NCBI GenBank assembly: GCA_040402835.1
Contig: JBBALW010000004.1
Length of the DNA stretch: 64,000 nt
Direction: 5' to 3' (one strand)
Source: Flavobacterium sp.
GTDB taxonomy: Bacteria; Bacteroidota; Bacteroidia; Flavobacteriales; Flavobacteriaceae
Made by a program: the position numbers and the translations under genes. Positions 6,061 through 55,378 of the stretch are shown piece by piece. The stretch's first letter is position 1, and every line of letters starts with the position of its first letter. The notes under the pieces are model-generated. The model made no database searches and was not told where the DNA came from. It worked only from the letters and a program-made list of their open reading frames with translations.

Positions 6061-6146
6061 AAAAAAACACAAAGCATAACTTTGTGTTTTTTTGTGTCTT
6101 TACGATAAAAAAATCTACCTCACATTTATATTCTGAATCAAATCAA
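6061..6146. repeat. direct repeat copy 1: duplicated accD 3' tail plus terminator
   Basis: About 86 nt, roughly 93% identical to 10245..10330. The minus strand still reads ..DLIQNINVR*, the last codons of accD, with only synonymous changes. Confidence 0.9.
6067..6093. terminator. bidirectional rho-independent terminator (permease / kup)
   Basis: Hairpin ACACAAAG-cataa-CTTTGTGT flanked by an A-run and a T-run, between convergent genes. Confidence 0.75.
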
Positions 6147-6165
6147 ACTATGAATTCATCTTATT

Positions 6166-8136
6166 TCAATGTATTTTTCGATCTAATTTTATGTTTGTTA
6201 TGGGATGATAAACTAAAGGAATTTGCTCTATTTCAACATCGGATTTTTCCAAACCAAATGCTTTTTCGTCGCTTAATCCCATACGTTTTAAAAGAAAATA
6301 ACCTTTTAATAGCAATCCTTCGCGTAAAGCAAATTCGTTTTCGATGGATAAAAATTTCTCAATTACAACAAACTTAAAGTCAGGTTCATTGTTGTATTTA
6401 CTTGAGCCATCGGGACGAATATGTAAATTAAGCTCTTTATTTGCTACTAATTCTTTGACAATATTTTTGAAATAAAGCTCCGTTTTTGGTTGTATTCTAA
6501 AACCAACATTGATATTTATTTTTATTACCTTATCATCAACTAATTCTGAAACATCATACGATAACGTGAATGGGTCTTCTGTTCTATTAATGTGTAAAAA
6601 CCAATAAACATCTGCGCGTTTTGGTTTTTTCGCAAAAATAGATTTGATTATTTTTTCTTCAATTTCATGTCTTCGATTTGCTTTAGACAAATAGATTAAA
6701 TGCGTTGCAAATTTTGGAATAGCGTCATCTTCGCTCAACTCAGTTAATTGATTACTATATTTACCTAATTCTATAAATTTAATAAAATTATTATTGATTT
6801 TTCTGGCATAATACCAAATGTACATCACAGAAAATATAAATAACTCAAAAAACAAGAACATCCAACGTTCTTTAATCTTGGCTACATTGGCAATAAAAAA
6901 AGCGATTTCTATAGTTCCAAAAACGGTCAGAAATAGGAAAACCTTAATTCTATTCCATTTCAATCTGTACTTGATAAAATAACTTAAAAGTAACGTAGTC
7001 ATAAGCATCGTTATAGTGATTGAAAACCCATAAGCGGCTTCCATGTGAGCACTTTCTTTGAAGTAAACCATCATTAACAAACAACCAAACCAAAGAATAC
7101 TATTTACACTAGGAATATAAACTTGTCCTTTACTATCACTAGGTTGCTTAACTGTAACTCTAGGCCAAAAATTAAGGTTCATTCCTTCACTGATTAAGGT
7201 AAAACTACCGCTAATTAATGCTTGTGACGCGATTACTGTTGCGAAAGTTGCAATGATAATACTTGGCAGTAAAAACCAACTTGGTACAATTTCAAAAAAC
7301 GGGTTTCTGCCATTCAATAAAGTAGCTCCTTGGTGCATCAACCAAGCAGCTTGCCCCAAATAACAAACAACTAAACTTATTTTGACATAAATCCAAGTGA
7401 TACGAATGTTTTTAATGCCACAATGTCCTAGGTCGGAATACAATGCCTCTGCTCCCGTAGTACATAGGAAAACTGCTCCTAAAAGCCAAAAACCATTTGG
7501 ATAGTTTACCAAGAGATTATAGCCATAATACGGGTTTAATGCTTTGATAATATCAGGATGGATTGCAATTTCGTGTATTCCAATAATTAGAAGCATTGAA
7601 AACCAAATTGCCATAATCGGACCAAAAAACTTGCCTATTACCTGTGTTCCAAATCGTTGAAAAAAGAACAATAATGACAAGATGGCTACAACAATACCAA
7701 TAGTTAAAGCATTTCCTGCGACGATTGTGTTTTCAAATCCATGAACCATTCCTAGACCTTCTATTGCAGAAGAAACGGAGATTGGAGGAGTAATAATTCC
7801 ATCGGCAAGTAGTGTAGTTGCACCCAATATTGTTGGTATTACTAATTTTTTCCCATAACGTCTAACTAATGCATATAGTGAAAAAATACCACCTTCTCCA
7901 TGATTATCCGCTCGAAGTGTGAGCCACACATATTTTATAGTAGTTTGAAAAACAAGTGTCCAAAAAATACAAGAAACACCACCATATACGAGCGTGAGGT
8001 CTATTGGTCTATTGCCTATAACAGCTCTTAATGCATATAAAGGGCTTGTTCCAATATCGCCATAAATAATCCCAAGAGCTACTAAAAGGGAGGCAGCAGT
8101 AACTTTGTTAACCACACTATTTTTTGTTGTATTCAT
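6166..8136 (-). CDS. kup: KUP/HAK/KT family potassium uptake transporter
   Basis: 656 aa. YGDIGTSPLYAL signature near the N-terminus, 12-TM core and a cytosolic C-terminal domain. Confidence 0.92.
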   Translation of the reverse strand: MNTTKNSVVNKVTAASLLVALGIIYGDIGTSPLYALRAVIGNRPIDLTLVYGGVSCIFWTLVFQTTIKYVWLTLRADNHGEGGIFSLYALVRRYGKKLVIPTILGATTLLADGIITPPISVSSAIEGLGMVHGFENTIVAGNALTIGIVVAILSLLFFFQRFGTQVIGKFFGPIMAIWFSMLLIIGIHEIAIHPDIIKALNPYYGYNLLVNYPNGFWLLGAVFLCTTGAEALYSDLGHCGIKNIRITWIYVKISLVVCYLGQAAWLMHQGATLLNGRNPFFEIVPSWFLLPSIIIATFATVIASQALISGSFTLISEGMNLNFWPRVTVKQPSDSKGQVYIPSVNSILWFGCLLMMVYFKESAHMEAAYGFSITITMLMTTLLLSYFIKYRLKWNRIKVFLFLTVFGTIEIAFFIANVAKIKERWMFLFFELFIFSVMYIWYYARKINNNFIKFIELGKYSNQLTELSEDDAIPKFATHLIYLSKANRRHEIEEKIIKSIFAKKPKRADVYWFLHINRTEDPFTLSYDVSELVDDKVIKININVGFRIQPKTELYFKNIVKELVANKELNLHIRPDGSSKYNNEPDFKFVVIEKFLSIENEFALREGLLLKGYFLLKRMGLSDEKAFGLEKSDVEIEQIPLVYHPITNIKLDRKIH

Positions 8137-8234
8137 TATGTAAATTGTTAAAAATTTTAATGATACAAAGTTCTATAAAAGGATATTTGTAGAATATAAA
8201 AATGTGGGGACTTGCTATAAAGATTTTATAAAGA

Positions 8235-8912
8235 TTAACTAAAACGATATCCAACACCGCTTTCCGTAATAATATATTTGGGCTGGTTTGGGTTTTCTTC
8301 TATTTTTTTGCGCAATGTACCGACAAAAACCCTCAAATATTGTGTTTCTGTTTGATAGCCAGTTCCCCAAATTTCTTTTAGGATGTATTGATGTGTCAAA
8401 ACCCGACCTTCATTTTTCATAAACAGCGCTAATAAATTATATTCGGTTGCGGTAAGTTTTAGCATTTCGTCTTTTTGTTTTATGATTCTTGCTCCAAAAT
8501 CTATTTGTAAATCTCGGCAAGTAAATATACTGCAATCATCATTGGTTTGATTTCTGCGAATTACCGAGCGAATTCGTGCTAAAAGTTCGGCACTTCTAAA
8601 AGGTTTTGTTAAATAATCAGTTGCGCCATTATCAAGTGCCTTCACAATATCCTCTTCACTATTTTGGACAGATAGAATTATTATTGCTTTATTGTACCAA
8701 GTTCGAAGTTCCTTCAGTATTTCATGCCCACTTTTATCAGGCAAACCTATATCTAACAATATTAATTCTGGTGGATGATTTACAGCCATTAGTATTCCTT
8801 CTTTTCCCGTTTCGGCAAGCCAAACTTTATAGTCGTTACTTTCTAATGTTATTTCTAATAACTTTCGGATTGGCGCTTCGTCATCAATAACTAATATTTC
8901 AGCTTTATTCAT
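8235..8912 (-). CDS. kdpE: OmpR-family response regulator, KdpE-like
   Basis: 225 aa. REC domain (VIDDE...LLDIGLPDKSG...ILSVQNSEEDIVKALDNGATDYLTKPF) closely parallels E. coli KdpE as I recall it. Winged-helix C-terminus (..VGYRF). 8-nt overlap with the upstream kinase gene. Confidence 0.7.
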   Translation of the reverse strand: MNKAEILVIDDEAPIRKLLEITLESNDYKVWLAETGKEGILMAVNHPPELILLDIGLPDKSGHEILKELRTWYNKAIIILSVQNSEEDIVKALDNGATDYLTKPFRSAELLARIRSVIRRNQTNDDCSIFTCRDLQIDFGARIIKQKDEMLKLTATEYNLLALFMKNEGRVLTHQYILKEIWGTGYQTETQYLRVFVGTLRKKIEENPNQPKYIITESGVGYRFS

Positions 8913-10014
8913 TTTTAAGATTGTTTAAATAAGTCGTTTCGGTTGGAATTTTTATAGTGAAACATGCACCTGAATTTATATTAGAGTCTAATTTTATGGT
9001 TCCATTAAGGGCTTCAATAAATCCTTTTACAATTGACAATCCAAGTCCACTTCCGCCAGTTTTTGTATTTGGTAATCTATAAAATTTATCAAAAGCAAAT
9101 TGAATTTCGTTTTCTGGAAACCCATTTCCGTTATCCGAAACAGAAATAATACAAGTATCAGATTCATAAGTTGCATCAATATTTATAATTGTATTTTTTG
9201 GAGTATATTGAATTGCATTAGTTACTAAATTTTGAATTACTTCTTCTATCAATCCAGAATCTAACTTTAATAACGGCAATTTTTCATTTGGAATGAAACT
9301 AATGATATGATGATTTTTTACCGGCGTTATTTTTTGAATTACCGTAAATATGAGTTCATTTATATCACACCAATCTTGTTTTGGTTTTAACATTCCCGTT
9401 TCTAATCGACTCATATTTAACAAATTTTCGACTTGTCTGTTCAGTCGAATACTTGCTTTGTCAATTTCTTCAAGAAGTTCATTTTCATTTGTTTCTGAAA
9501 GTTTGGTTTTATTTTCTTTAAGGGTGTCAATCGCTCCAATTATTGTAGATATTGGTGTTCGCAACTCATGAGATAATGAATTGAGTAATGTATTGTAGAG
9601 TTTTATTGTTTTTTCTTTTTCGTCTTTATCTCGTGCTTTACTTTCTGCTTCTCGTATTTTGAATGTTAAAACTGCATTTACTAAAGCTATAATGAAATAC
9701 ATTAGAAACAATAAAATGTCCTCAGTATTTGTAATATGAAATGTAAATAGAGGTTGAATAAAAAAGAAATTTAAAATCAAACCACTTAAAACAGCAGTTA
9801 ACAAGACTGGTAAAATATCAAAAACCATCGCAACAAGAGAAACTGTCATTAGAAGAATTAATGCCGTTATTCGATAATCAATATATTTTGAAGTAATAAA
9901 ACAGATAATTGACACTATAAATACCATTACAATACTAATAAAGTATTGCATTGGCATTGAATATTTTTTTGTTTTAAATTTTCTCAAAATCGAATTTGTT
10001 GCTTGATACAGCAA
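8905..10014 (-). CDS. sensor histidine kinase matching only the C-terminal half of KdpD (TM bundle + HisKA + HATPase)
   Basis: 369 aa. TM helices, H-box LSHELRTPIS, N-box VTNAIQYT, G-boxes DNGNGF / GGSGLGLSIV. The track start is TTG; an ATG at 9957 (MPMQYF..) is an alternative. No KdpD N-terminal or Usp sensor part is present. Confidence 0.8.
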   Translation of the reverse strand: MLYQATNSILRKFKTKKYSMPMQYFISIVMVFIVSIICFITSKYIDYRITALILLMTVSLVAMVFDILPVLLTAVLSGLILNFFFIQPLFTFHITNTEDILLFLMYFIIALVNAVLTFKIREAESKARDKDEKEKTIKLYNTLLNSLSHELRTPISTIIGAIDTLKENKTKLSETNENELLEEIDKASIRLNRQVENLLNMSRLETGMLKPKQDWCDINELIFTVIQKITPVKNHHIISFIPNEKLPLLKLDSGLIEEVIQNLVTNAIQYTPKNTIINIDATYESDTCIISVSDNGNGFPENEIQFAFDKFYRLPNTKTGGSGLGLSIVKGFIEALNGTIKLDSNINSGACFTIKIPTETTYLNNLKNE

Positions 10015-10244
10015 AAGTAATTGAATTCTTCAAATATTTCTAAAACAGCATCTTTAATCTCTTTAGGTTTAACTCCTCGAAGCGCTGCTTCATTTTTTTC
10101 CACAGATTCACGGATTAAAAAGATTTTTGAAAATCTGCGGCTGTTATTTCGTTAATACTTCTGGGGCTATGCCGCGAGGGAGTTTATGGATTAAAAAAGT
10201 AAGCAGCCTTGATATAAAATTTCCAATTCGGTATTATTTTCCAT

Positions 10245-10330
10245 AAAAAAAACACAAAGCATAACTTTGTGTTTTTTGTGTCTTTATGATAAAAAAACCT
10301 ATCTCACATTTATATTTTGAATCAAATCAA
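10245..10330. repeat. direct repeat copy 2: the genuine accD 3' end plus terminator
   Basis: Matches 6061..6146 with about 4 substitutions and a T-run length difference. Confidence 0.9.
10252..10277. terminator. rho-independent terminator of accD (second copy of the same hairpin)
   Basis: ACACAAAG-cataa-CTTTGTGT flanked by an A-run on one side and a T-run on the other, so either strand reads hairpin plus U-run; about 25 nt downstream of the accD stop. Confidence 0.75.
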
Positions 10331-11153
10331 TATATAAATTAATTTTATCTTTCAATTCTTTTCTTGGAGTAATAAAATCTAGAAAACCGTGTTCCAAAAC
10401 AAATTCGGCAGTTTGAAATCCTTCTGGCAAATCTTTTCCAGTGGTATCTCGCACCACTCTTGGTCCTGCAAATCCAATCAAAGCGCCTGGTTCAGAAATA
10501 TTAATATCACCTAACATCGCATAAGAGGCAGTAGTTCCACCTGTAGTTGGATCAGTACATAAAGAAATATAAGGAATTCCAGCATCGGCTAATTGCGCTA
10601 ATTTTGCTGATGTTTTTGCCAATTGCATTAAAGAATAAGCAGCTTCCATCATCCTTGCACCACCTGATTTTGAAATCATTACAAATGGTGTTTTGTTTTT
10701 TATAGCGTAATCAATTCCACGAGCAATTTTTTCTCCCACAACAGCTCCCATAGAACCTCCAATAAAGGCAAAATCCATACAGCAAACTACCAAGTCTTTT
10801 CCTTTTGATTTTCCAACACCTGTCCGAACCGCATCTTTCAATTTGGTTTTTTCCATAGCATCTTTTAATCGATCGGCATATTTCTTGGTATCTACAAAAT
10901 GCAAAGGATCTTTGGAAGTCATTTTTGCATCTAATTCTTTGAATTCGTTGTTGTCGAATAAAATTTCGAAATATTCTTTACTTCCAATTCTAACGTGAAA
11001 ACCATCTTCAGGGCTTACCCAAAGGTTTCTAGCTAATTCTTCGGCATCGATAATTTTCCCTGTTGGGGATTTATACCACAATCCTTTCGGAACATCTTTT
11101 TTGTCCTCTGTTGCTGTAGTAATTCCTTTTTCTGTTCTTTTAAACCAAGCCAT
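10299..11153 (-). CDS. accD: acetyl-CoA carboxylase carboxyltransferase beta subunit
   Basis: 284 aa. MAWFKR.., carboxyltransferase core ([14 protein letters not shown].., SGGARMMEA). Confidence 0.93.
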
Positions 11154-11217
11154 ATTTTTAATGGATAATGGATAATTGACAATGGATAATTATTAATTGT
11201 CAATTATCATTTGTTAA

Positions 11218-12333: not shown

Positions 12334-14895
12334 TTAGAACGGGTAATTAATTCCAATATTTACTACAGAATTCGCAAAATTGTAATCTCTGAACCATCTC
12401 TTGCTTTCTTCTTCGGCTGGATTGTAGGTTTTAAAACCAAAATCCAAACGAATTACGAAAAAATTAAAATCATATCGAAGTCCAAATCCCGAACCAACAG
12501 CACTATTTTTCAGAGAATTCAAATTTTTAAACACCGATTTTTCATCGTCAACATTGTCCAAAACATTCCAAATATTTCCTGCATCTACAAATAAAGCGCC
12601 GTTTAACTGCCCTATCATATTGAATCGAAGTTCCGCGCTAAATGCTAATTTTAGATTGGCTTCGTTGAAATCATTCATTCCGCCACTCGCTCCTGGACCT
12701 AATCCGTAGGACTGCCAAGCTCTATTGTCATTGGTTCCGCCAGCAAAATAACTTCTTGAAAAAGGAATAGTATTAGAATTTCCATAAGGAATTGCTATTC
12801 CTGCAAAACTTCTAATAGCAAGAATTCTTTTGCGATGTAAATCCCATAATTTTATAAATTCGCCTTCTGCTTTTAAATATTGAGAATATTGAACTTCAAA
12901 AAATTTATTGTTTTCACCTTGATTTTTCAGTTGTTTTGAAGTGTTCGCAAGCAATGATAATAAGTTTCCAGCCGATTCTATTTTTCCTCTAAAAATCATA
13001 AAATCATTGTCGTTTTGATCTTTTTTTGTGGTTTCAGAATAGCTATAACTTGACGAAACAATCAAATCATTTTCCGTTAAACGACTACGACGTTCTTCAA
13101 TACTTCGGATGGTTTTGTAATCGGCAGCACTTGGAATTACAGTAGGATTTGCTCCTAAAATATCATTTAAAAATCCATTGGTTCCGCTTTCAATAATTAA
13201 ATTATGTACGCTATTAAAATAACTTGGATTTACACTGTAAGTTGAATTTTGCGCCAATGAATTTAATACATTATAGGAAGATTTATAGATATTGAAGTAA
13301 TTGCTTGTATTTACATTTTTTACAAATTGCACATTCAATAATTCAAAACGGGCTTTGATATTTTGCCTCGGATTCCAATTATAATTCATAGAACTCGTAA
13401 AATTTTGCTTGTCTAAACCAATGTTTTCTTGCTTGGCATATCCAATAGCAAAACTCGTAAAGGGCAACATACTTTTCGGAATAATTCTGTCGGTTTTTAA
13501 TGGAAAGAACAAACTAGGAAAATGCAATTTCATATCCACACCATACTCAGAAACATTGAAAAAGTTGTTTTTTATGTTGGCAACTTCTTTGGATGAACCA
13601 ATATTTCCTCTCGCAGCAATTTCTAATGTTTCGGCACCACGGAAAATATTTCTAATGGAAACCGAAGTGCTTGCCGTAATTCCGATATCCTGAATGGCAG
13701 AATGTGTTAAATCAAAATTATATCCAAAGCTCAATTTCTTCCTTGGCGATAAATAAATGTTGGCAATTAGCGAATTTGCAGTTGCGTCTTTCGGGTCAAC
13801 AGTATATTGAATTGACGGATAATTAAAAACCCGTAAATTCCCCAAAGCCCTTGATGTCAAAGTTGTTTTTGTATCGGAAAAAATACTTCCTTTAGTAATA
13901 AAAACAGCGTCTGTAATTGCTTTTGGTCTGAATTTTAATTTTGATTTGCTAAATAAATTGAAGTTATTATACGTAATACTATCTGTGATTTTTGACTTGT
14001 CTTTTGAAGTTAAATTATCTGTATAAATATTAATGTCGCTAATTTTATACAATTTAAATGGCGAAATTTTTGTAGAATCACCTTCTCTGACAGATTGATT
14101 TTCAATATTTATGTCAATGTTCGCTTTGTTATTCGAATTCAGAGTGTCAATTGCATAATTTACATAATTTTGTTGAAAATAATAGGCGCCATTGTTTCTG
14201 AAATCTGCAGTAATTCGATTTCTTTCAGCATCAAAATCCAGTTTTTTATATTGTTTTCCCGATTTAAGAAATGTCAATCCTTTATTTATTTTATATAAAG
14301 AATCCAATAAAGGCGTGTTTATTTTTACTAAAATGGTATCTAAAAGAAATGGTTTCCCAGTTGAAATGGTATAGTTTACGCTGGCTTTCTTTTTGCTTAC
14401 GGAATCAATTTTAAATTCCCCTTTTATATTGAAATACCCTTTGTCAAAATAATAAGATTTTAATCTTAGCAAAGAACGATTCGTACTTTTATCGTCTAAA
14501 ATTACAGGTGCTTCACCAGTTTTTTTAAGAAAGGTATGAATTCCAGAATAGTAGAACGAATTTCCTAATCGATCGACTTGTTTTTTGGAAAGCCATTTTG
14601 ATAATTGGGTATATTTCTCAGGATTTTTAATGTATTTCGACTTATAAATAGAATCGGGATTGGGAGTCGCCAAATTAAAAATATTCAACCGCAGTCGATA
14701 ACCAAGTAACGAACTATTTGGTTTTTGATACAACTGATTAGTTATGTCCTCATTACTTTCCTTTTTGCTGTTTACTAAAATTTCATTCTTTGTAAGTAGC
14801 ATTTTTCCGTTTGGAACCCTTTTCAAAGTGTTACAAGCAGATATAATTAACGCAATTAAAATAAATAATGATATTTTTGTAGTCTGGTTTCTCAA
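12334..14895 (-). CDS. Omp85-family outer-membrane protein, TamL/TamA-like lipoprotein
   Basis: 853 aa. TTG start, signal peptide with lipobox-like ..IISAC, POTRA-like N-terminal part, C-terminal beta-barrel ending ..GINYPF. Confidence 0.7.
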   Translation of the reverse strand: MRNQTTKISLFILIALIISACNTLKRVPNGKMLLTKNEILVNSKKESNEDITNQLYQKPNSSLLGYRLRLNIFNLATPNPDSIYKSKYIKNPEKYTQLSKWLSKKQVDRLGNSFYYSGIHTFLKKTGEAPVILDDKSTNRSLLRLKSYYFDKGYFNIKGEFKIDSVSKKKASVNYTISTGKPFLLDTILVKINTPLLDSLYKINKGLTFLKSGKQYKKLDFDAERNRITADFRNNGAYYFQQNYVNYAIDTLNSNNKANIDINIENQSVREGDSTKISPFKLYKISDINIYTDNLTSKDKSKITDSITYNNFNLFSKSKLKFRPKAITDAVFITKGSIFSDTKTTLTSRALGNLRVFNYPSIQYTVDPKDATANSLIANIYLSPRKKLSFGYNFDLTHSAIQDIGITASTSVSIRNIFRGAETLEIAARGNIGSSKEVANIKNNFFNVSEYGVDMKLHFPSLFFPLKTDRIIPKSMLPFTSFAIGYAKQENIGLDKQNFTSSMNYNWNPRQNIKARFELLNVQFVKNVNTSNYFNIYKSSYNVLNSLAQNSTYSVNPSYFNSVHNLIIESGTNGFLNDILGANPTVIPSAADYKTIRSIEERRSRLTENDLIVSSSYSYSETTKKDQNDNDFMIFRGKIESAGNLLSLLANTSKQLKNQGENNKFFEVQYSQYLKAEGEFIKLWDLHRKRILAIRSFAGIAIPYGNSNTIPFSRSYFAGGTNDNRAWQSYGLGPGASGGMNDFNEANLKLAFSAELRFNMIGQLNGALFVDAGNIWNVLDNVDDEKSVFKNLNSLKNSAVGSGFGLRYDFNFFVIRLDFGFKTYNPAEEESKRWFRDYNFANSVVNIGINYPF

Positions 14896-14933
14896 AGGTT
14901 GTGAAATATTTAATTCAAAAGTACATTATTTCT

Positions 14934-15668
14934 ATGGTTAGTAAAAACCAAATAAAGTTAATCTCGAGTTTGCAACAAAAAAAGTTCCGTTTTGCAAACC
15001 AATTATTCTTTGCTGAAGGCGTAAAAGTAATTCAGGAATTGTTGAAATCCAACTTTATATTGGAACATTTATACACAACCGAACCCCTTTTTGATGCCGT
15101 TAATGCCGATTTTAAAACCCTAATTTCAGAAAGTGATTTAAAGAAAATAAGTGCGCTTTCAACTCCAAATAATTGTTTAGCAGTTTTTAAAATCCCTTTG
15201 GTCAAGCCAATAATTGAGCAGGGATTAATCATTGCTTTAGACGACATTCGAGATCCGGGAAATTTAGGCACCATTTTGAGATTATGCGATTGGTTTGGAA
15301 TTTCACAAGTAATTTGTTCAGAACAAACGGTTGATATTTACAATCCAAAAGTCGTGCAAGCCACTATGGGTTCTATTGCGAGAGTAAATGTAAGCTATGT
15401 AGATTTGAATTTATTTCTCCAAAAAACAACACTCCCAGTTTTTGGAACTTTTATGGATGGCTCCACTATTTATCAAGAAACCCTACCAAAAGAAGCGGTA
15501 ATTGTGATGGGAAATGAAGCAAATGGAATTTCTGAAAGCATCGAAAAAACTATAAAAAACAGATTGACAATTCCTCGTTTTGGCGATTTGCAACAAACGG
15601 AAAGTTTGAATGTAGCAACTGCAACTGCAATTATTTTGAGCGAATTTAGAAGGTTGACTGTGTCGTAA
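14934..15668 (+). CDS. TrmH/SpoU-family RNA 2'-O-methyltransferase
   Basis: SPOUT motifs (LDDIRDPGNLGTILR, VMGNEANGIS, SLNVATATAIIL). I prefer the ATG at 14934 over the track's GTG at 14901. Confidence 0.85.
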   Translation: MVSKNQIKLISSLQQKKFRFANQLFFAEGVKVIQELLKSNFILEHLYTTEPLFDAVNADFKTLISESDLKKISALSTPNNCLAVFKIPLVKPIIEQGLIIALDDIRDPGNLGTILRLCDWFGISQVICSEQTVDIYNPKVVQATMGSIARVNVSYVDLNLFLQKTTLPVFGTFMDGSTIYQETLPKEAVIVMGNEANGISESIEKTIKNRLTIPRFGDLQQTESLNVATATAIILSEFRRLTVS

Positions 15669-15730
15669 AGCCATTCAAAACACAATAGAAAATTAAACAC
15701 AATAAAATAAAATAGTTATCTTTAATTAAT
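15385..15730 (+). repeat. direct repeat copy 1: last ~92 codons of the TrmH-family gene plus ~60 nt downstream
   Basis: About 330 nt are near-identical to 19377..19726. By eye I counted 3 substitutions and 1 single-base indel before the ends diverge. Confidence 0.95.
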
Positions 15731-15811
15731 ATTTTAGAAAAAGTATTCAGAACCGCCATGATTTAATTCAAATGTTCGGGTTTAAAAAAATATTAACTCA
15801 ATAAATAAATC

Positions 15812-18688: not shown

Positions 18689-18745
18689 AAAAAGTAACAC
18701 CACAACTTTGGCGTGGTTATTTTATTAACTTTAATAATAAAAACT

Positions 18746-19252: not shown

Positions 19253-19376
19253 ATACTTTTATTGAGCCCAAGCTGGTGAGCTATTACCTTGTTGTTTTCC
19301 GGTTAAAATGAAATTGAAAAGTAAAATAATTCAAAACGTTAAAATAGAATTAGTTGCAACTAAACTGTTACAAGGT

Positions 19377-20769: not shown

Positions 20770-20787
20770 TTATTTGGATTAGTTACA

Positions 20788-45457: not shown

Positions 45458-45509
45458 ATTTTAAATATCCTTTTCAAAGTTTAGAACTTTGACAAAGGTT
45501 GCTATTAAA

Positions 45510-45541
45510 AATGCCTCGCAAGTTTTTGCGAGGCATTTTTG
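45510..45541 (+). terminator. rho-independent terminator of hppA
   Basis: AATGCCTCGCAA-gttt-TTGCGAGGCATT followed by a T-run. Confidence 0.85.
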
Positions 45542-45723
45542 TTACAAATAATTTTTTTTACACGCGGGAGTTAAATGTGTTTTGTTGATAACTTCTCTGT
45601 ATTTCTACTTCAAAAAAACTTAAATTTGAAGTTCAATTAATTTCCAACTACAAATAATATTTTATAGTTTTTAGACTTCAAAAGTTTGAAAACGTCGAAA
45701 ATTTATTTGAATTTTTATAAAAT

Positions 45724-48700: not shown

Positions 48701-50253
48701 CTGACTTTTCAAAAGGTGACGCCGATGTTTTGCGTAAAGCAATGGGAAAAAAGCAAAAAGATGTCTTGGACAAAATGAAACCCAAATTCATCAGTCAAGC
48801 AGTAGCAAAAGGTCACACAGAAGATAAATTAGAGAAAATTTGGAAAGATTGGGAAGCGTTTGCCGAATATGCGTTTAACAAATCACATTCTACTTGTTAT
48901 GCTTGGATTGCTTATCAAACCGCCTATTTGAAAGCAAATTACCCTGCGGAATATATGGCAGCAGTTTTATCTAATAATATGAGTGATATCAAGCAAGTCT
49001 CCTTTTTTATGGAAGAATGTAAACGAATGGGATTACAAGTTTTAGGCCCTGATGTGAATGAGTCATTTTATAAATTCACCGTTAATGAAAACTATGCCGT
49101 TCGGTTTGGAATTGGTGCTGTAAAAGGCGTTGGAATGGCAGCCGTTCAAACCATTGTAGATAATAGGAAAGATGGAAAATACAAATCAATATTTGATTTA
49201 ACAAAGCGAATTGATTTGCGTTCTGCAAATAAAAAAGCGTTAGAAAACTTAATTCTTGCGGGTGGTTTTGATTCGTTTCAAGGAGTTATAAGAGCACAAT
49301 ATTTCCACGATGATGGCGATGGAATTACATTTTACGAAAAAGCAATTCGCTATGGCGTAAAATTTCAGGAGAATGAAAATTCATCGCAAGTAAGTTTGTT
49401 TGGCGAATCGAGTGATGTTCAAATTGCAGAACCCGTTGTTCCGCCTTGTGAAGATTGGTCAACAATGGAAAAATTAGCCAAAGAAAAAGAAGTCGTTGGG
49501 ATTTATCTTTCAGGACATCCGCTTGATGATTTTAAAAATGAAATGAAATATTTTTGTAATTCGAGATTAGAAACTCTAAGAGATTTGGTTTCACATGTGA
49601 ATAAAAACTTATGTTTTGGAGGGATAATTACGAATGTTCAGCATCGAGTTGCTAAGAATGGAAAAGGTTGGGCGACTTTTGTTTTAGAAGGATATGACGA
49701 AAGTTATGAGTTTAAAATCTTTGGTGAAGAATACATGAAAAGCCGACATTACCTAATTCCGAATAGTTTTACTTATATTAAAGTGTTGGTAAAAGAAGGA
49801 TGGCCAGATAAAGAAACAGGGAAAAAAGGGGAGCCAAGATTGCAATTTATGGACTTTAAAATACTTCAAGATGTTTTGGGAATATTTGCAAAAAAATTGA
49901 TTATTCATATAAATATTAACGATTTGCACTCCGATTTTATTCATCGGTTGAGCACAGTTTTTCAAGAAAATAAAGGGGACAATACGGTTGTTTTTGAAGT
50001 AATGGAATTGGAAAAGATAAATCATCAAGTTGAGGTTGTTCCTCAAATTGTTGCTGTTTCGGATGAGGTTGTTGAAGACGTAGTTTTTGACGAAGAAAAT
50101 CCTCAAGATCCTGAAATTGAATTGATAACAGAAATTGAGGAAACAAAAGTGATCACGAAATTGGAAATGCCAAGTCGGAAATTAAAAATTAAAATCTCTA
50201 ACGAATTGTTATTCGAGTTGGAAAAAATGCAAGTTGATTTTAGATTGAATTAA
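45724..50253 (+). CDS. dnaE: DNA polymerase III alpha subunit with fused N-terminal DnaQ-like 3'-5' exonuclease domain
   Basis: 1509 aa. N-terminal DEDDh exonuclease motifs (IFDTETTGLP..., ..HNATADVEAT), then PHP (FVHLHNHTQFS), polymerase core (..GPGRGSAAGS.., PDIDIDF) and OB fold. Confidence 0.95.
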   Translation: MYLIFDTETTGLPKRWDAPITDTGNWPRCVQIAWQLHDGMGKLIEHQDYLVQPDGYNIPYDAERIHGISTELAQADGISLSEVLEKFNVALSKSKFIVGQNLKFDINIMGCEFHRLGIESQMSSMPVLDTCTEVIASLLKLPGGRGGKFKLPTLTELHSYLFNKPFAEAHNATADVEATTRCFFELIRTEIFTYKELQVEQDYFQEFQNYNSVPIQLLGLQHINLKEASEKIKQQFGELNVVPVSKVTLSENKQVLIDTDFVHLHNHTQFSVLQSTISVAALVKAASQNKMPAVAITDHANLMGAFHFVRDILYHNKAAEYKNAAAVANGEETTEVAMKPIVGCEFFVCENHKDKTRKDNGYQIVFLAKNKKGYHNLAKLSSLAHTEGFYYVPRIDRSLIEIYKEDLIVLSGNLYGEIPNKILNLGENQAEEALIWWKQHFGSDLYIEVMRHNQEDENRVNTALISLARKNDVKIVATNNTFYIEKDNANAHDILLCVRDGEKQSTPIGRGRGYRYGMPNQEYYFKSGEEMKKLFTDLPEAIANVSEIVAKIEIYDLAREVLLPKFEIPQEFVVSEDDNDGGKRGENAFLKHLTFIGANKRYAEITTEIQERIDFELLTIQNSGYPGYFLIVQDFIAEARKMDVSVGPGRGSAAGSVVAYCLGITNIDPLLYNLLFERFLNPDRVSLPDIDIDFDDEGRSRVMDYVIKKYGSKQVAQIITYGTMAAKSAIRDTARVLDLPLFEADKIAKLIPALIPAKWSLARFLKESEADIKKVLKPEDFEKIKDLIAISKDDDLLGETIQQAQILEGNLRNTGIHACGVIITPSDITNFVPVATAKDSDLYVTQFDNSVVESAGLLKMDFLGLKTLTLIKDTVKLVKYRSGIVLDPDTFPIDDLKTYELFQRGETVGIFQYESAGMQKYMKELKPTVFGDLIAMNALYRPGPIAYIPSFIKRKNGEETIVYDIDACEELLKETYGITVYQEQVMLLSQKLADFSKGDADVLRKAMGKKQKDVLDKMKPKFISQAVAKGHTEDKLEKIWKDWEAFAEYAFNKSHSTCYAWIAYQTAYLKANYPAEYMAAVLSNNMSDIKQVSFFMEECKRMGLQVLGPDVNESFYKFTVNENYAVRFGIGAVKGVGMAAVQTIVDNRKDGKYKSIFDLTKRIDLRSANKKALENLILAGGFDSFQGVIRAQYFHDDGDGITFYEKAIRYGVKFQENENSSQVSLFGESSDVQIAEPVVPPCEDWSTMEKLAKEKEVVGIYLSGHPLDDFKNEMKYFCNSRLETLRDLVSHVNKNLCFGGIITNVQHRVAKNGKGWATFVLEGYDESYEFKIFGEEYMKSRHYLIPNSFTYIKVLVKEGWPDKETGKKGEPRLQFMDFKILQDVLGIFAKKLIIHININDLHSDFIHRLSTVFQENKGDNTVVFEVMELEKINHQVEVVPQIVAVSDEVVEDVVFDEENPQDPEIELITEIEETKVITKLEMPSRKLKIKISNELLFELEKMQVDFRLN

Positions 50254-50268
50254 TAACTACACATATAA

Positions 50269-51084
50269 ATGAAATTACTAAAAATAAAGCCTTCCAAAAG
50301 TTTAAACAAAGCGTATTACAAGCAATCACTAACGCGTGAACAAATTGAACTTTTCAAAAAAGAACTGCAAAACACGTTTCATCATATTGATGAAAAGCAA
50401 GACGAAGAATACCATAAAAATGTTATTGCCGACTTGTTTAAAAACGTGTATTGCAAAGACAAATACCTTGTAAACGTTAATAAAAAAGAAGATTTAGTAA
50501 TACGTTTAGGAAACAATACAACTGATGATGTTGGTGTTTTATTAGAGTTTAAAAAACCAAAAGAAACTAGAGATATGGTTTCGGCAGAAAATGCCAATGT
50601 AAAAGCATTGCAAGAAACGGTTTTATATTATTTGCGCCAAACCGTTGATAATGATAATCATAAAATAACCAATCTTGTGGTTACCAATATCTATGAGTGG
50701 TTTGTTTTTGATGGCGTTTGGTTTGAAAAAAACATTTTTAGAAACGCTAAACTCAAAAAAGACTATTTAGCTTTCAAAACTTCGGGACACGATACTAAAT
50801 ATTTTTATGATACTATTGCGGCTAAATACCTAGCAGAATTTACAGAAGAAGTCCCTTGCACTTATTTTAATCTATTAGATTATAAAGATAAAATCACCAA
50901 CGACAATCCAAATGACGATGACGATTTAATTGACTTATACAAAATTCTTTCGCCAGAACATTTGTTAAGCAAAAAGTTTGTAAACGACAGCAATTCCTTA
51001 AATACCGATTTTTATAACGAATTACTTTATATTATTGGTCTTGAAGAAAGCAAAGACACCGCCAAAAAACCATTCGTAGAATAA
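50269..51084 (+). CDS. type IIG restriction-modification enzyme, fragment 1/3 (N-terminal PD-(D/E)xK-like nuclease region); frameshifted
   Basis: 271 aa. Candidate nuclease motif ..KEDLVIRL...VLLEFKKP. Ends in the A6 run at 51064..51069; the next frame continues ..IRRINEAERNEGSLIEN.. without a break. Confidence 0.7.
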   Translation: MKLLKIKPSKSLNKAYYKQSLTREQIELFKKELQNTFHHIDEKQDEEYHKNVIADLFKNVYCKDKYLVNVNKKEDLVIRLGNNTTDDVGVLLEFKKPKETRDMVSAENANVKALQETVLYYLRQTVDNDNHKITNLVVTNIYEWFVFDGVWFEKNIFRNAKLKKDYLAFKTSGHDTKYFYDTIAAKYLAEFTEEVPCTYFNLLDYKDKITNDNPNDDDDLIDLYKILSPEHLLSKKFVNDSNSLNTDFYNELLYIIGLEESKDTAKKPFVE

Positions 51085-51197
51085 ATGAAGCCGAACGCAA
51101 CGAAGGTTCGCTTATTGAAAACACGATTTCGAAACTTAAAACAAAAAAATATTTTGGGTATGAAAACAATGAGGCAACCGAAAATCAATATTACGAA

Positions 51198-52211
51198 GTG
51201 GCACTGGAACTGTGCATTACTTGGTTAAATAGAATTTTATTTCTTAAACTTTTAGAATCTCAATTAATAAAATACCATCGTGGCGACAAGGAAAATTATT
51301 CTTTTTTAACGAGTTCAAAAATTAAAGAATTTGATGATCTCGAAGAATTATTTTTTGAAGTCTTGGCAGAAAAAATTGCCGACAGAAAATCTTCCGTTGC
51401 AACTAAATACGCAGCCATTCCTTATCTAAACAGTTCGTTGTTTGAAATGACCGATTTGGAAAAAAACGCTTTGTCTTTGAGTAATTTAAAAGACCGATTA
51501 GAGTTTCCGGTTTATAAAAAATCAGTTTTAAAGAAAGGTACAAAAGACGCAATCAAACCTAAAACCAGTTTAAACTATCTTTTAGATTTTCTTGATGCCT
51601 ATAATTTTGCCAGCGAAAGCAATGCCAAAATTCAAGAAGAAAACAAATCTATCATTAACGCATCGGTTCTTGGATTGATATTCGAAAAAATTAACGGTTA
51701 TAAAGACGGTTCGTTTTTTACACCAGGTTTTATTACGATGTACATGTGTCGCGAAACCATTCGCAAAGCGGTTGTGGAAAAGTTCAAAACCAATTTTCCG
51801 TATTGTCAAGATATTACAGACTATGAAGAATTAAAAGACAAAATAGATTACACCAATAAAGCTCAACGACTTGAAGCTAACAAGCTCATAAACGACATAA
51901 AAATTGTAGATCCAGCCTTAGGTTCGGGACACTTTTTGGTTTCGGCACTTAATGAAATGATTGCTATTAAAAGCGATTTGCAAATTCTTTCTTATACCAA
52001 TGGCAATCGTGTTTTGGGTTACACCATAACGCTTGATAACGACGAATTGATAATTCAAAATCAGGAAACCGACAAGCTTTTTGAATACACATTAAATCAA
52101 AACAATAAAATCATACCCGACTTGCAAGATTTGCAAGAATGTTTGTTTACAGAAAAGCAAACCATTATAGAAAACTGCCTTTTTGGTGTGGATATTAACA
52201 AAAATTCGTAA
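51198..52211 (+). CDS. type IIG restriction-modification enzyme, fragment 2/3 (helical linker + start of N6-adenine methyltransferase domain)
   Basis: The frame is already open from about 51060. SAM-binding motif I-like ..IVDPALGSGHFLV.., ..LFGVDINKNS then a stop. The track start is GTG. Confidence 0.7.
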   Translation: MALELCITWLNRILFLKLLESQLIKYHRGDKENYSFLTSSKIKEFDDLEELFFEVLAEKIADRKSSVATKYAAIPYLNSSLFEMTDLEKNALSLSNLKDRLEFPVYKKSVLKKGTKDAIKPKTSLNYLLDFLDAYNFASESNAKIQEENKSIINASVLGLIFEKINGYKDGSFFTPGFITMYMCRETIRKAVVEKFKTNFPYCQDITDYEELKDKIDYTNKAQRLEANKLINDIKIVDPALGSGHFLVSALNEMIAIKSDLQILSYTNGNRVLGYTITLDNDELIIQNQETDKLFEYTLNQNNKIIPDLQDLQECLFTEKQTIIENCLFGVDINKNS

Positions 52212-53971
52212 TGATTTGCCAATTGCGTTTGTGGATTGAATTATTAAAAAATGCTTACTACGTCACTGCGAGGAACGAAGCAGTCTCAACGAAAGATTGC
52301 GTCGTTCCTCGCAATGACGGTCTTCAACTTCAAACCTTACCTAATATTGACATCAATATTAAAACTGGAAACTCATTAATCTCAAAATTTGCTATCAAAG
52401 ACAATGTTTTTGAGCGCATTACTGGTTTTCAGAAGAAATTACAAGAATACAAAAATTGGGTACATATTTATAAAAACACGAACGACAAGAAAGCCAAAAA
52501 CGTTTTAAAAAATAATTTAAAACTCTTTAAAGACGAATTTAAATTGGCCGATTTGCGGGTAACCAAGTTGCAAAACGACCTGCGAAAATTGAACGGTGAA
52601 TTTTACGATAAATACCAAACGCACCAGTTTTTTACTAGTGAATTAACTGATAAAGAACAGAAAGCCAAAGAAAAACTAGAAGCAGCAATTAACGACAAAC
52701 AAGTAGAACTACAAACCGTAAAAGACAACCCCATTTATGAAAATGCGTTTGAATGGCGGTTTGAATTTCCAGAAGTTTTAGACGATAAAGGAGGTTTTGT
52801 TGGTTTTGATGTAGTGATTGGAAATCCGCCGTATGGAGTTGCTTTAAGCAATTCTGAAAGAACAGAAATCGGTAAAGTTTTGGGTAAAGTTCCAGATTTT
52901 GAGATTTATTATTTTTTCATAAATCTATCTAAAAATTTATTGTGCAAAAACGGTTTAAAATCGTATATCATACCAAACACAATCTTATTTAATGTGTTTG
53001 CAAAAACTTTTAGAGAAACATTATTTGATAAATGGCAAATTAATTCAATTTTAGATTGTACAAATTTCCCAATTTTTGATGGCGCAACGGTGCGATGTAT
53101 TTTAACTCAATTCCAAAATAAAGCATCTTTAGATATAATAAATTATAAGCCAACTGCTGATGCTAAAACTTTTGAAGAATTAATAGAAAGAAAAACAGAA
53201 AACGTTTCTAAAAAACAATTATTAGAAAACAATCAAAATTGGGGATTGGTTTTTAAATTATTTTCTGAAACTTTAAATATTATTTCAAAATTAAAAATTA
53301 AAAAAAATACTCTTTCGTATTATTTTCCTTATTTTACACAAGGTATAATAGCTTATGATAAATATAGAGGGCAAGACGAATTTACTATTAAAAATCGTAT
53401 TTATCATTCTAATGATTCTACTTTAGGATGGAAAAAATGGCTTTGGGGTGAAGATATTAATCCATATTCAGTAAAATGGAATGCAAAAGAATTTATAAAT
53501 TATGACGCAAATATAGCCAATCCTAGAGACCCAAAGTATTTCATCGGAGAACGTATATTAATAAGAGAAATCACTAATCCTAAAATTTTTGCTGGATTTA
53601 CAAATGAAGAAAGCTACAATGACCCTTCAATTATAAATATTTTAAAAAATGAAAAAGGTGAAATAAATATTAAATCTTTGCTAGCTATCATTAACTCAAA
53701 ACTAGCAACATTTTATCATTTTAATTCATCGCCAAAAGCAACAAAAGGAGCATTTCCAAAAATATTAATAGAAGATATTAAAAACTTTCCAATTCCAAAA
53801 ATTGACAAATCAAATCAAGACAAATTAACAAATCTCGTCGACCAAATTCTAACCTTAAAAAAAGAAAATCCCAAAGCTGATACAAGTGATTTAGAAAACG
53901 AGATAGACGAATTGGTTTATCAATTGTATGCGTTAACACCAGAGGATATTGAGGTGGTGAAGGGGAGTTAA
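52211..53971 (+). CDS. type IIG restriction-modification enzyme, fragment 3/3 (methyltransferase catalytic motif + target-recognition domain)
   Basis: 586 aa. ..ICQLRLWIELLKNAYY.., catalytic VVIGNPPYGV (NPPY), long C-terminal TRD-like region. Carries an in-frame palindromic insert at 52261..52319. Confidence 0.75.
   Translation: MICQLRLWIELLKNAYYVTARNEAVSTKDCVVPRNDGLQLQTLPNIDINIKTGNSLISKFAIKDNVFERITGFQKKLQEYKNWVHIYKNTNDKKAKNVLKNNLKLFKDEFKLADLRVTKLQNDLRKLNGEFYDKYQTHQFFTSELTDKEQKAKEKLEAAINDKQVELQTVKDNPIYENAFEWRFEFPEVLDDKGGFVGFDVVIGNPPYGVALSNSERTEIGKVLGKVPDFEIYYFFINLSKNLLCKNGLKSYIIPNTILFNVFAKTFRETLFDKWQINSILDCTNFPIFDGATVRCILTQFQNKASLDIINYKPTADAKTFEELIERKTENVSKKQLLENNQNWGLVFKLFSETLNIISKLKIKKNTLSYYFPYFTQGIIAYDKYRGQDEFTIKNRIYHSNDSTLGWKKWLWGEDINPYSVKWNAKEFINYDANIANPRDPKYFIGERILIREITNPKIFAGFTNEESYNDPSIINILKNEKGEINIKSLLAIINSKLATFYHFNSSPKATKGAFPKILIEDIKNFPIPKIDKSNQDKLTNLVDQILTLKKENPKADTSDLENEIDELVYQLYALTPEDIEVVKGS
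52261..52319. repeat. palindromic (hairpin) repeat element inserted in frame in the methyltransferase
   Basis: Arms CGTCACTGCGAGGAACGAAGCAGTCT and AGATTGCGTCGTTCCTCGCAATGACG (23/26 complementary) with loop CAACGAA. Translated as ..VTARNEAVSTKDCVVPRNDG... Confidence 0.8.
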
Positions 53972-53979
53972 AACAAAAA

Positions 53980-53999
53980 AAGCCACTCGAAAGTGGCTT
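53980..53999. terminator. bidirectional terminator between the RM gene and the STAS-like gene
   Basis: AAGCCACT-cgaa-AGTGGCTT flanked by an A-run and a T-rich stretch, between convergent genes. Confidence 0.75.
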
Positions 54000-54019
54000 T
54001 AAATTTTTATTTTTAGATA

Positions 54020-54289
54020 TTACATTGCAGAAATAATAACTCGTTGTACAAAATCGTTGGTGTTTAAGAAAGCAATTTTTGATTTAAAAACATCTAACGT
54101 TACGATGTCTTTTAGTTTGCTGAAACATTCGTTTGCAAATGAGTTCGTAACTACATCAACACCCTCAAAATCTAAATATACTTTATCGTTGGTATTGATT
54201 TTTTCAATAATATCCAAACGTATTTTAGCCCCTAAATCTCGAGTACCAAGACTTGGGTTTATTTCTCTAAATAGGATTGTGTGTGTCAT
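54020..54289 (-). CDS. small STAS-like domain protein (DUF4325-type)
   Basis: 89 aa from the ATG (MTHTILFREINPSLGTRDLG...). The track gives a TTG start at 54310. ..KVYLDFEGVDVVTNSFANECF.. matches the DUF4325/STAS-like pattern (xDFxGV..x.SF.dE.F). Confidence 0.65.
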   Translation of the reverse strand: MTHTILFREINPSLGTRDLGAKIRLDIIEKINTNDKVYLDFEGVDVVTNSFANECFSKLKDIVTLDVFKSKIAFLNTNDFVQRVIISAM

Positions 54290-54307
54290 TTCGTTTATAT
54301 TATAGTG

Positions 54308-54315
54308 CAAAGTTA
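54308..54315 (-). promoter_or_regulatory. candidate Bacteroidota -7 promoter box (TAACTTTG) for the STAS-like gene
   Basis: Fits TAnnTTTG and lies 18 nt upstream of the ATG at 54289. Confidence 0.35.
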
Positions 54316-54372
54316 TTATTAAATGGTTGATAAATAACGTAATATTTTGTTATTTATTTTTATTTTTTTAAA

Positions 54373-55272
54373 TCATTCAAATAAATTTTCAAAAACCTGC
54401 TTTTTGTAATCATAAAAAGGGCTTGTAAATTCAGTGTAATCAACAGAAACATTAGTGTTTATTCTTATATATACACAAGTGCCTTGCCATCCATCAATAT
54501 TTTTTACAATGGTGCCTTTTTCACTAACATTTAGTTTTTTGTTTCCCGAAAACAAACTCAGCCAACCTTTGTTTAATCTAACAAACGATGCTGTTGCAAA
54601 TAATCCATGACCTTGTCCTTTTCCATTGGTAACGCCGCTTTCAATACATTTTGAAATCGCTTCTTCTTCGGTAAAACTAAATTTTTGATTTAATGAAGCG
54701 TGAATTCCCATTCCAAAATCACAAACAATTAATCGAATTGAATTTATGTTTTCAAAATATTGTGCTACAACCCAACCAACTTTTTCATCTGTGTGATTTA
54801 ATACATTATCCAGAATTTCATTGAAACAATAATCTAAACTTGCATAAACATTATCATCTAAAGAACTTTTTTCTTTTAGCACTTTTAAAATGCTATTTAA
54901 TACCTCTGTCTGATTTTCGGATGTGTATTTTTGTATTTGTACAGAATTATGGGGGTTAATTTTCGGAATTGAAATAGGCAATTCTACATTTAGATTTTCA
55001 AAGAAATTCATTTTTGCCAAGTAGCTAACTATTTCTGTATTAGTATCTAATTTAATTGTGCCTTTCACCTCAATTCCTAAATTCTCAATATGTTTTATTG
55101 AGCAAAGTAATAAAATAGCATAATCTGGATATATAAAGTTACAATCAGAGAAATCAATAATTATTTGGGTGTTTGGTTCGGCTTTATATTGGTTAACCAA
55201 TGCTTTACAAACAGCAATTGTTTGCGTATGTGATTTAGAAATGTCCTTAATTAATAGTGTATATGTTTGCAT
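54373..55272 (-). CDS. GHKL/HATPase_c ATP-binding protein (SpoIIAB/RsbW-like kinase fold) with N-terminal STAS-like region
   Basis: 299 aa. N-box ..CFNEILDNVLNH.., G1 ..VCDFGMGI.., G2 ..NGKGQGHGLF... The first ~100 aa (..QIIIDFSDCNFIYPDYAILLLCSI..) look like a STAS/anti-sigma-antagonist-type fold. Confidence 0.65.
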   Translation of the reverse strand: MQTYTLLIKDISKSHTQTIAVCKALVNQYKAEPNTQIIIDFSDCNFIYPDYAILLLCSIKHIENLGIEVKGTIKLDTNTEIVSYLAKMNFFENLNVELPISIPKINPHNSVQIQKYTSENQTEVLNSILKVLKEKSSLDDNVYASLDYCFNEILDNVLNHTDEKVGWVVAQYFENINSIRLIVCDFGMGIHASLNQKFSFTEEEAISKCIESGVTNGKGQGHGLFATASFVRLNKGWLSLFSGNKKLNVSEKGTIVKNIDGWQGTCVYIRINTNVSVDYTEFTSPFYDYKKQVFENLFE

Positions 55273-55289
55273 GGCATTTATTTGTTAAT

Positions 55290-55297
55290 CAAAAATA
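55290..55297 (-). promoter_or_regulatory. candidate -7 promoter box (TATTTTTG) for the GHKL-ATPase/STAS operon
   Basis: Fits TAnnTTTG and lies 17 nt upstream of the ATG at 55272. Confidence 0.35.
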
Positions 55298-55330
55298 GAC
55301 AATTAATTTAAACAATAATTTATTTGATGA

Positions 55331-55378
55331 ATTTCTTTTGAATTGGAGAAAATGCAAGTGAATTGCAAACTGAATTAA
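55331..55378 (+). pseudogene. displaced remnant of the dnaE 3' end (last ~14 codons plus stop)
   Basis: 55337..55378 reads FELEKMQVNCKLN*; the dnaE C-terminus at 50212..50253 reads FELEKMQVDFRLN*. 33/42 nt are identical and 5 of the 9 differences are synonymous. Confidence 0.8.

Follow-up and report, generated by a model that had tools for sequence, protein, structure and literature searches.

We analyzed a 64-kb stretch of Flavobacterium sp. DNA (33% GC; assembly GCA_040402835.1, contig JBBALW010000004.1), hereafter called the window, in which three blocks of accessory genes lie next to three conserved core genes. These blocks, which we call islets, follow accD, a TrmH-family gene, and dnaE. 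In every case one copy of a direct repeat is the 3' end of the intact core gene and the other copy is found past the block of accessory genes. An earlier note made from the sequence alone (the original prediction) had described three blocks bounded in this way, and all three repeat pairs were found at or close to the positions given there. The fbaA product of the window is 95% identical to the one encoded by a Flavobacterium metagenome-assembled genome. The sequences compared with the window, cited here by L numbers, were 80 genomic loci around fbaA, 10 close relatives whose AccD protein is the same, and 66 dnaE loci from metagenomes. Two matching sequences, L160 and L082, are from the same strain as the window (100% identity) and do not count as independent evidence. 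The comparison of occupied and empty junctions that had been proposed together with the prediction revealed empty sites in relatives for all three islets. Thus, all three blocks are insertions.

The first islet lies on the minus strand between accD and a convergent FtsX-type permease gene. Its cargo (6166-10245) consists of kup (6166-8136), a response regulator gene (8235-8912), a gene for a DUF4118 KdpD-like histidine kinase (8905-10014), and a 230-nt leader. The proximal repeat copy (10246-10356) contains the last ~57 nt of accD, the stop codon, and a bidirectional terminator hairpin and is joined to intact accD (10299-11153). In the distal copy (6061-6170) the accD tail from about position -57, the stop codon, the terminator, and a 13-nt spacer are followed directly by the FtsX stop codon. 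BLAST aligned the two copies of this pair over 112 nt at 89% identity, comprising a 32-nt perfect bidirectional terminator hairpin and 77 nt at 88% with a 1-nt indel. The repeat itself had been predicted correctly, with other figures (86 nt at about 93%).

The distance from accD to the convergent FtsX-type permease gene is 46-160 nt in about half of the species, including L001, L002, and the close relatives L087 and L090. The remaining species have 0.6-4.3 kb of unrelated genes in this gap, and the accD-FtsX site is a hotspot. At the same site, L161-L163 contain accD, a histidine kinase, a response regulator, kup, orf90, BBP2, and FtsX in that order, and their Kup is 96% identical to that of the window. 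The left boundary of islet 1 is identical in the window and in L161-L163, with the terminator followed by ATG and then GAAAATAAT... Homology between the window and L161 ends 8-11 nt before the kup stop codon. Past that point the window corresponds to an empty-site junction from accD -57 onward (tail, stop codon, terminator, short spacer, and FtsX stop codon), and AGAAAA is the only sequence in common at the far joint of kup (-8) and accD (-57). These alignments indicate that islet 1 is a truncated version of the histidine kinase-response regulator-kup-orf90-BBP2 islet of L161-L163. Because homology to L161 stops near the kup stop codon and the joint contains only AGAAAA in common, the window allele is a composite, with its left part from an occupied allele, its right part from an empty one, and an illegitimate joint between the two.

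Two further cases of displaced tails are found at the accD-FtsX site in relatives. L161-L163 contain a 23-nt copy of the accD tail directly after BBP2. In L084 and L091 the gap between accD and FtsX holds a Gp49/HTH (helix-turn-helix) toxin-antitoxin pair together with two further genes, and past this cargo 22 nt of the FtsX tail are present a second time, stop codon included (20 of 22 nt identical). No displaced accD tails were found in other species with occupied accD-FtsX gaps. The stop codon of kup in the window (6166-6171) and that of the BBP2 porin gene in L161 (13060-13082) both lie inside sequence derived from the accD tail, and the C-termini of both proteins would therefore have been remodelled by the joint. 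In L161 the stretch from the 23-nt accD scar to FtsX (13083-13375) also contains a hairpin that is new (AATAATCCCGAAATAATCGGGATTATT), along with units of ~28 nt repeated in a tandem array (13197-13346). In L086 (10925-11025) the accD terminator is followed by ~100 nt of the FtsX 3' end and then by clpX-clpP-tig; either FtsX was truncated by a rearrangement or a large insertion is present.

The second islet follows the TrmH-family (SpoU) gene (14901-15668, plus strand), which in essentially all relatives converges on an outer membrane protein (OMP) beta-barrel gene across a gap of 8-100 nt. On the same strand, the islet module (15730-19379; limits set by 82-90% homology to L166, which has unrelated flanks) encodes an S8 protease (15812-18688) and a 179-aa protein (18713-19252). 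The S8 protease had been named correctly in the original prediction, whereas the "PrcB-like" label of its neighbor reflects a sub-threshold match to PrcB_C (E = 0.007), and the insertion at this junction is really 5.2 kb long (15669-20897) and nested. The proximal repeat copy (~15383-15730) consists of the last ~283 nt of the TrmH-family gene and 62 nt of downstream sequence. The distal copy (~19378-19726), a TrmH tail fragment with the same 62 nt, is continuous with the open reading frame (ORF) o19725. This pair aligned at 15385-15730 and 19377-19726, with 97.4% identity over 350 nt.

The older part of the nested insertion (19727-20897, plus strand) contains o19725 (19725-20129) and a gene for a PepSY-like protein (20323-20769). 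None of the relatives has this o19725/PepSY block, and no gene-tail copy accompanies it; a candidate decayed copy of the OMP or TrmH tail beside it was rejected, with alignment scores within the range of shuffled sequences. The TrmH protein ends in EFRR in relatives and in EFRRLTVS in both window copies, and these are followed by the same 62 nt. Since both tail copies share the LTVS end and this downstream sequence, the S8/PrcB block arrived after the o19725/PepSY block. The S8/PrcB module exactly fills the interval between the two TrmH copies, and both joints have at most 3-4 nt of microhomology. The left edge of the distal copy is an illegitimate joint between sequence downstream of the PrcB-like gene and TrmH (-283), with the microhomology TAA. 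The four-codon extension of the TrmH C-terminus (15654-15668) marks the place where the native stop codon was overwritten by the older insertion. Elsewhere at this junction, L084 (5253-5478) has a ~215-nt palindromic insert resembling a miniature inverted-repeat transposable element (GCCACAGATT...AATCTGTGGC) that separates the 3' end of TrmH from the OMP beta-barrel gene; this insert is also present in L085, L087, L088, and L091 and is absent from L086, L090, L092, and L093.

The third islet follows dnaE (45724-50253, plus strand), which in most relatives is followed by trxA after 108-230 nt. The proximal copy of the repeat, tail A (50212-50254), comprises the last 13 codons and stop codon of dnaE and encodes FELEKMQVDFRLN. 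The distal copy, tail B (55337-55379), resembles the dnaE tail of the genus consensus, encodes FELEKMQVNCKLN and a stop codon, and is continuous with the native dnaE-trxA spacer. The two copies are identical at 34 of 43 positions, which agrees with the predicted identity of about 79%, and the repeat ends exactly at the dnaE stop codon. The cargo between them (50255-55336) starts on the plus strand with an MmeI-like type IIG restriction-modification (RM) gene split into three ORFs (50269-51084, 51198-52211, and 52211-53971). It continues on the minus strand with a STAS-like DUF4325 ORF (54020-54310) and a GHKL ATPase gene (54373-55272). The STAS assignment of the original prediction was borne out by the DUF4325 match; its "RM gene" is this one gene in three ORFs. 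In L168 (389-1516) the orthologue of the RM gene reads through the first frame break of the window copy, and the window gene therefore appears to be a recent pseudogene.

Three relatives share tail A (ending in VDFRLN) with the window. In L083 tail A leads straight into the spacer that follows tail B in the window, with 97-98% identity on both sides. In L168, dnaE is followed by the same RM gene with the same left junction (91% nucleotide identity) and an intact RM frame. A third state is seen in L167 (726-1121), where an A-type tail and 28 nt are followed by neither the RM gene nor trxA but by an unrelated gene (MSKKITYDQELL...), which has no Pfam match. The A variant also occurs in part of one 90%-identity cluster. 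Tail B is the genus consensus at 12 of 13 residues (the consensus is F where tail B has C). Between tails A and B, five codon differences are synonymous and three are non-synonymous. Four of the five differences of tail A from the tails of close relatives fall in one 10-nt patch, a clustering that may reflect a short conversion tract and not point mutations. The last 21 nt of tail A (50233-50253; GTTGATTTTAGATTGAATTAA) are found without change in L105 (10784-10804), a distant lineage whose DnaE C-terminus has 64% amino acid identity.

The direction of the event at dnaE can be read in two ways. L083, with tail A at an empty site, suggests that the insert consisted of the cargo and a foreign tail B. 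The alternative, that tail A and the RM gene moved as a block and tail B is the old tail of the recipient, is suggested by L168, which has tail A and the same RM gene, and by L095 and L143, the nearest empty relatives, which have B-type tails. A reading in which tail A is native and tail B foreign is weakened by L168, in which tail A is linked to the same RM cargo. A candidate extension of tail B to ~25 codons with a frameshift was rejected; the sequence upstream has no match to the highly conserved KLKIKISNELL motif of real dnaE tails. A search of 58 other dnaE loci for displaced dnaE tails gave only noise-level matches of 11-15 nt.

Self-BLAST of the window detected pairs 1 and 2 as the only strong dispersed direct repeats (E = 1e-34 and 1e-167, respectively), and pair 3 was not significant in this blind comparison. 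When the dnaE tail was compared with both strands of the whole window, the best match was the pair 3 copy (34 of 43), with the next matches at 30 and 26 and a chance expectation of ~2e-6. A scan with the last 40 nt of all 48 non-overlapping window ORFs gave only the three islet tails above background (39, 35, and 31 of 40 nt, with the rest at 27 or below). The same scan with 5' ends and mid-gene segments of window ORFs found no displaced copy (at most 28 of 40). A survey of 2.37 Mb of loci, including the window, yielded 40 dispersed direct-repeat pairs. Five of these were of the type in which a gene 3' end has an intergenic copy, two in the window and one each in L113, L068, and L007. With the two cases at accD-FtsX in relatives and these three in related loci, the predicted recurrence of the architecture extends beyond the window. 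Look-ups of the exact TrmH, S8, Kup, o19725, and UbiE-like proteins found no record.

We consider it probable that these scars were left by integrase-independent recombination between related Flavobacterium genomes with different contents at the same intergenic hotspot. Donor DNA entering the cell would carry the 3' end of a conserved gene together with the accessory genes that follow it in the donor allele. Its free ends would be trimmed and closed into a circle by an illegitimate, microhomology-level joint, and one homologous crossover in the gene-tail segment would then integrate the circle (Campbell type). Homology-facilitated illegitimate recombination (HFIR) could do the same in one step, with one end recombining homologously in the conserved gene and the other joining illegitimately slightly upstream of the stop codon of that gene. 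Either route would produce an intact gene, the cargo, a partial gene tail, and the native downstream DNA, and the two fit the anatomy equally well. Tails rather than arbitrary segments would be duplicated because the hotspots lie just beyond gene 3' ends and because a fragment containing the stop codon keeps the essential gene intact. The apparent targeting of stop codons is as expected if the stop codon marks the border of sequence conservation between diverged genomes, and selection that keeps essential genes intact is expected to account for the survival of tail duplications alone.

Several observations point to this route. Where both parent sequences are known (islets 1 and 2), alignments show that the far joints are illegitimate, with 3-6 nt of microhomology. 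The near boundaries of islet 1 and islet 3 match those of donor-type alleles, in L161-L163 and L168, respectively. There is also a precedent from conjugation experiments in E. coli (PMC3240628): in 56 of 60 clones, linear DNA that was homologous on one side to the 3' end of lacZ was trimmed and recircularized, and a single RecA-dependent crossover then inserted it. These clones had 109-950 bp of the gene 3' end duplicated, and true HFIR accounted for 4 of the 60 (PMC3240628). HFIR has been proposed to explain orphaned 3' fragments at type VI secretion system (T6SS) and Rhs loci (PMC5361080), and integrase-free hotspots of horizontal gene transfer between core genes without mobile elements are common and well described (PMC5635113). 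Together with the allelic differences between copies described below, these joints, boundaries, and precedent favor the Campbell-type crossover through short homology that was one of the two routes offered by the original prediction. We infer the intermediate (circle or HFIR), dependence on RecA, and the mode of DNA entry.

Other observations weigh against recombination between genomes as the origin of the scars. Pair 3 has only 43 nt at 79% identity with a longest identical run of 11-12 nt, and both this pair and the 22-nt case in L084 are poor RecA substrates as they stand today. Tail A is the same as the tail of L083 at all nine sites at which tails A and B differ, and any crossover would therefore be confined to the last 9 nt (TGAATTAAT). 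As to which of the two is the native dnaE tail, L083 points one way and L168, L095, and L143 the other. Searches of metagenomes for the exact sequence and codon usage of tail B gave no match and no donor allele, and for pair 2 no donor allele was found in which S8 comes immediately after TrmH. Finally, ~20 occupied dnaE sites in relatives and the older o19725/PepSY insertion have no tail copy, so the process leaves a scar only sometimes.

Recombination between genomes predicts two alleles per pair, and an event in place, with foreign DNA captured at the joint of a local tandem duplication or of a long target-site duplication left by a staggered break, would instead yield copies whose identity dates the event. 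The second possibility has some appeal, since both S8/PrcB joints look illegitimate in comparison with L166, as they would if DNA had been captured where a duplication was joined, the pairs span identities of 97% to 79%, and tail B has the genus-consensus (ancestral-type) residues N and K, like a fossil of an older tail. We regard it as unlikely. The differences between copies coincide with sites that are polymorphic in outgroups, with both states present there, in three of four cases for pair 2 (p = 0.011) and two of four for pair 1 (p = 0.07); for pair 3 this comparison did not discriminate. Tails A and B are each identical to the L143 tail at 37-38 of 42 positions but to each other at only 33 of 42. 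These matches with polymorphisms in relatives and the similar distance of tails A and B from L143 argue against duplication in place followed by decay and for recombination between genomes. In addition, the near boundary of pair 1 is shared with L161 and the far one is not, as in a composite allele, and tail B has four changes of its own, three of them synonymous. Islet 3 is present in one and absent from the other of two genomes that are 97-98% identical (the window and L083), yet tails A and B differ by 21%. Comparison with outgroup sequences thus shows that the two copies of each pair behave as different alleles, presumably of donor and recipient. The range of identities had been taken as a sign of events of different ages; it largely reflects divergence between donor and recipient alleles, and dating from it is unsafe.

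The e14 element and phage 21 integrate at icd in E. coli. The islets could likewise be decayed or non-autonomous integrative elements akin to cis-mobilizable elements (CIMEs), with the repeats as attL and attR at a gene 3' end and the recombinase encoded elsewhere. Their topology is like that seen in integrative and conjugative elements (ICEs), integrative mobilizable elements (IMEs), and CIMEs that streptococci have at the 3' ends of rpmG, rpsI, fda, and rplL, where the island lies between direct repeats of the 3' end of a conserved gene that remains intact, and recombinase genes are missing from CIMEs as well (PMC7563491). The cargo of islet 3 (RM, STAS/GHKL) and of L084 (toxin-antitoxin) is typical of mobile islands. 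In two cases the cargo begins no more than 1 nt from the stop codon, and L167, L168, and L083 represent three states that all switch exactly at the dnaE stop codon; such a switch is equally expected at a border of conservation. Scans of the islet ORFs with Pfam and NCBIfam models (down to 40 aa for islet 3) gave no integrase, transposase, or recombinase remnant, in line with what had been predicted. Nor were tyrosine or serine recombinases found at these sites in ~45 occupied relatives. This check of cargo in relatives covered 35 protein clusters from occupied accD-FtsX and dnaE-downstream gaps (~33 loci) and further close-relative and L161-type loci, and the sole mobility genes, in L003, were a pair for an IS3 DDE transposase. 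Candidate terminal inverted repeats at the ends of the cargo had scores within the range of shuffled sequences, no motif or core common to the junctions was found, and searches for plasmid or viral carriers of islets 2 and 3 gave no matches. The repeats are 22, 23, 43, 112, and 350 nt long on four different anchor genes, a variation unlike a short target-site duplication of fixed length. Far joints for which both parents are known connect unrelated sequences through simple microhomology, and islet 1 is a piece of a longer islet cut inside the 3' end of kup rather than a unit bounded by att sites. The repeats of ICEs, IMEs, and CIMEs are att sites of a specific integrase; their boundaries are fixed, and intact cognate elements occupy the same target. 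We found none of these features here. The islets resemble CIMEs in outline but lack every testable feature that defines them, and we consider such an origin unlikely.

A further proposal, which we also judge distinctly unlikely, is that the scars had a rare and ancient origin and are now inherited or exchanged by double crossover in the flanking core genes, with no specially active route. It is in keeping with the dnaE-RM junction of L168, which at 91% identity is similar to the divergence of the flanking dnaE, and with the left boundary that islet 1 has in common with L161-L163. Hotspots of horizontal gene transfer flanked by core genes and free of mobile elements are known to be common (PMC5635113), and in our survey tail scars occur elsewhere in related loci at ~1.3 per Mb. 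By contrast, the copies of pair 2 are 97-98% identical and no sampled relative has the pair, which favors a recent event in this lineage, and at the accD-FtsX site alone one species complex has at least three separate scars of different lengths. This proposal concerns tempo and is compatible with recombination between genomes as the way in which the scars formed. The claim in the original prediction that an insertion route is specially active in this lineage gains little from the counts: the two BLAST-detectable cases in the 64-kb window compare with three in 2.3 Mb, but the window was selected for showing them.

It is very unlikely, in our view, that a dedicated route exists, perhaps trans-acting or linked to DNA uptake, in which cassette circles that lack a recombinase are homed just past the stop codons of conserved genes by the tail copy they carry. 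If true, this would be a tail-homing cassette system distinct from integrons, ICEs, and Tn7/CAST (CRISPR-associated transposon) elements. A trans-acting site-specific recombinase, the other route offered by the original prediction, is not supported, given repeats of 22-350 nt with no common core on at least four anchors, only microhomology at the joints, and the lack of integrase-bearing elements at these sites in the ~45 occupied relatives. An assembly artefact, in which alternative alleles of co-occurring strains were joined in a chimeric contig, is extremely unlikely: the matching public contigs are from one sequencing run, the break in L160 falls precisely where the 32-nt perfect repeat ends, and alternative alleles of these sites do co-occur in nature, but the 3-6 nt of microhomology at the far joints means that no k-mer overlap could create them, the independently assembled L082 spans the distal joint of pair 3 with 100% identity, and the same kind of scar is found in relatives from other samples.

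Recombination between genomes with an illegitimate closure places the window among processes that are already known. As in Campbell integration in E. coli, the gene is kept intact, cargo is brought in, a partial duplicate of the 3' end lies on the far side, closure is illegitimate, and there is no dedicated recombinase (PMC3240628). That system was a laboratory construct, whereas these are natural Flavobacterium cases with chromosomal alleles as donors, and the repeats of 22 and 43 nt in the window and its relatives are shorter than any in the E. coli study (PMC3240628). HFIR and C-terminal displacement at Rhs, contact-dependent inhibition (CDI), and T6SS loci are similar in having one anchor in a conserved gene, an illegitimate other end, and orphaned 3' fragments downstream of the new block (PMC5361080). 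In those loci the displaced 3' ends are alternative toxins with immunity genes whose retention is selected. Here they are short, apparently functionless, orthologous tails of the housekeeping genes accD, trmH, and dnaE, with cargo made up of a module for K+ uptake, a protease, and an RM system. Classical HFIR also usually deletes recipient DNA, whereas here there is a duplication. As in integrase-free hotspots, whose contents turn over by homologous recombination in the flanks (PMC5635113), the accD-FtsX and dnaE-trxA junctions hold cargo that differs among relatives, contain no mobile-element genes, and switch at the border of a conserved gene. The hotspot model predicts clean replacement, and the displaced tails are an additional scar that marks one side of the exchange as non-homologous.

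The window is thus a new and unusually well-resolved natural example of a known process and not a new class of element. Apart from toxin loci and laboratory constructs, well-resolved natural footprints of combined one-sided homologous and illegitimate recombination have rarely been documented. In the present case a single locus has occupied, truncated, and empty alleles that can be aligned base by base, which shows integrase-free hotspots gaining and trimming cargo. A displaced gene tail could serve as a simple genomic marker of such events. These results also call for caution, since an island flanked by a repeated gene 3' end is not automatically a site-specific integrative element.

The only tRNA gene of the window, tRNA-Asp (57117-57191), is at no islet border, and no copy of its 3' end was found in the window. 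It is followed by ~1 kb (to 58163) with a small GIY-YIG ORF, and the region at ~57.2-57.6 kb cannot be aligned to L143. Within dnaE, a candidate recombination breakpoint ~800 nt from the 3' end was rejected; identity between the window and L095 drops there, but identity between L095 and L143 does so similarly, and this is mostly an effect of rate. Upstream of dnaE, the H+-pyrophosphatase gene (42908-45723) is not syntenic in L143 or L095, and identity collapses upstream of ~45500. This pattern indicates that the 5' side of dnaE is another variable junction.

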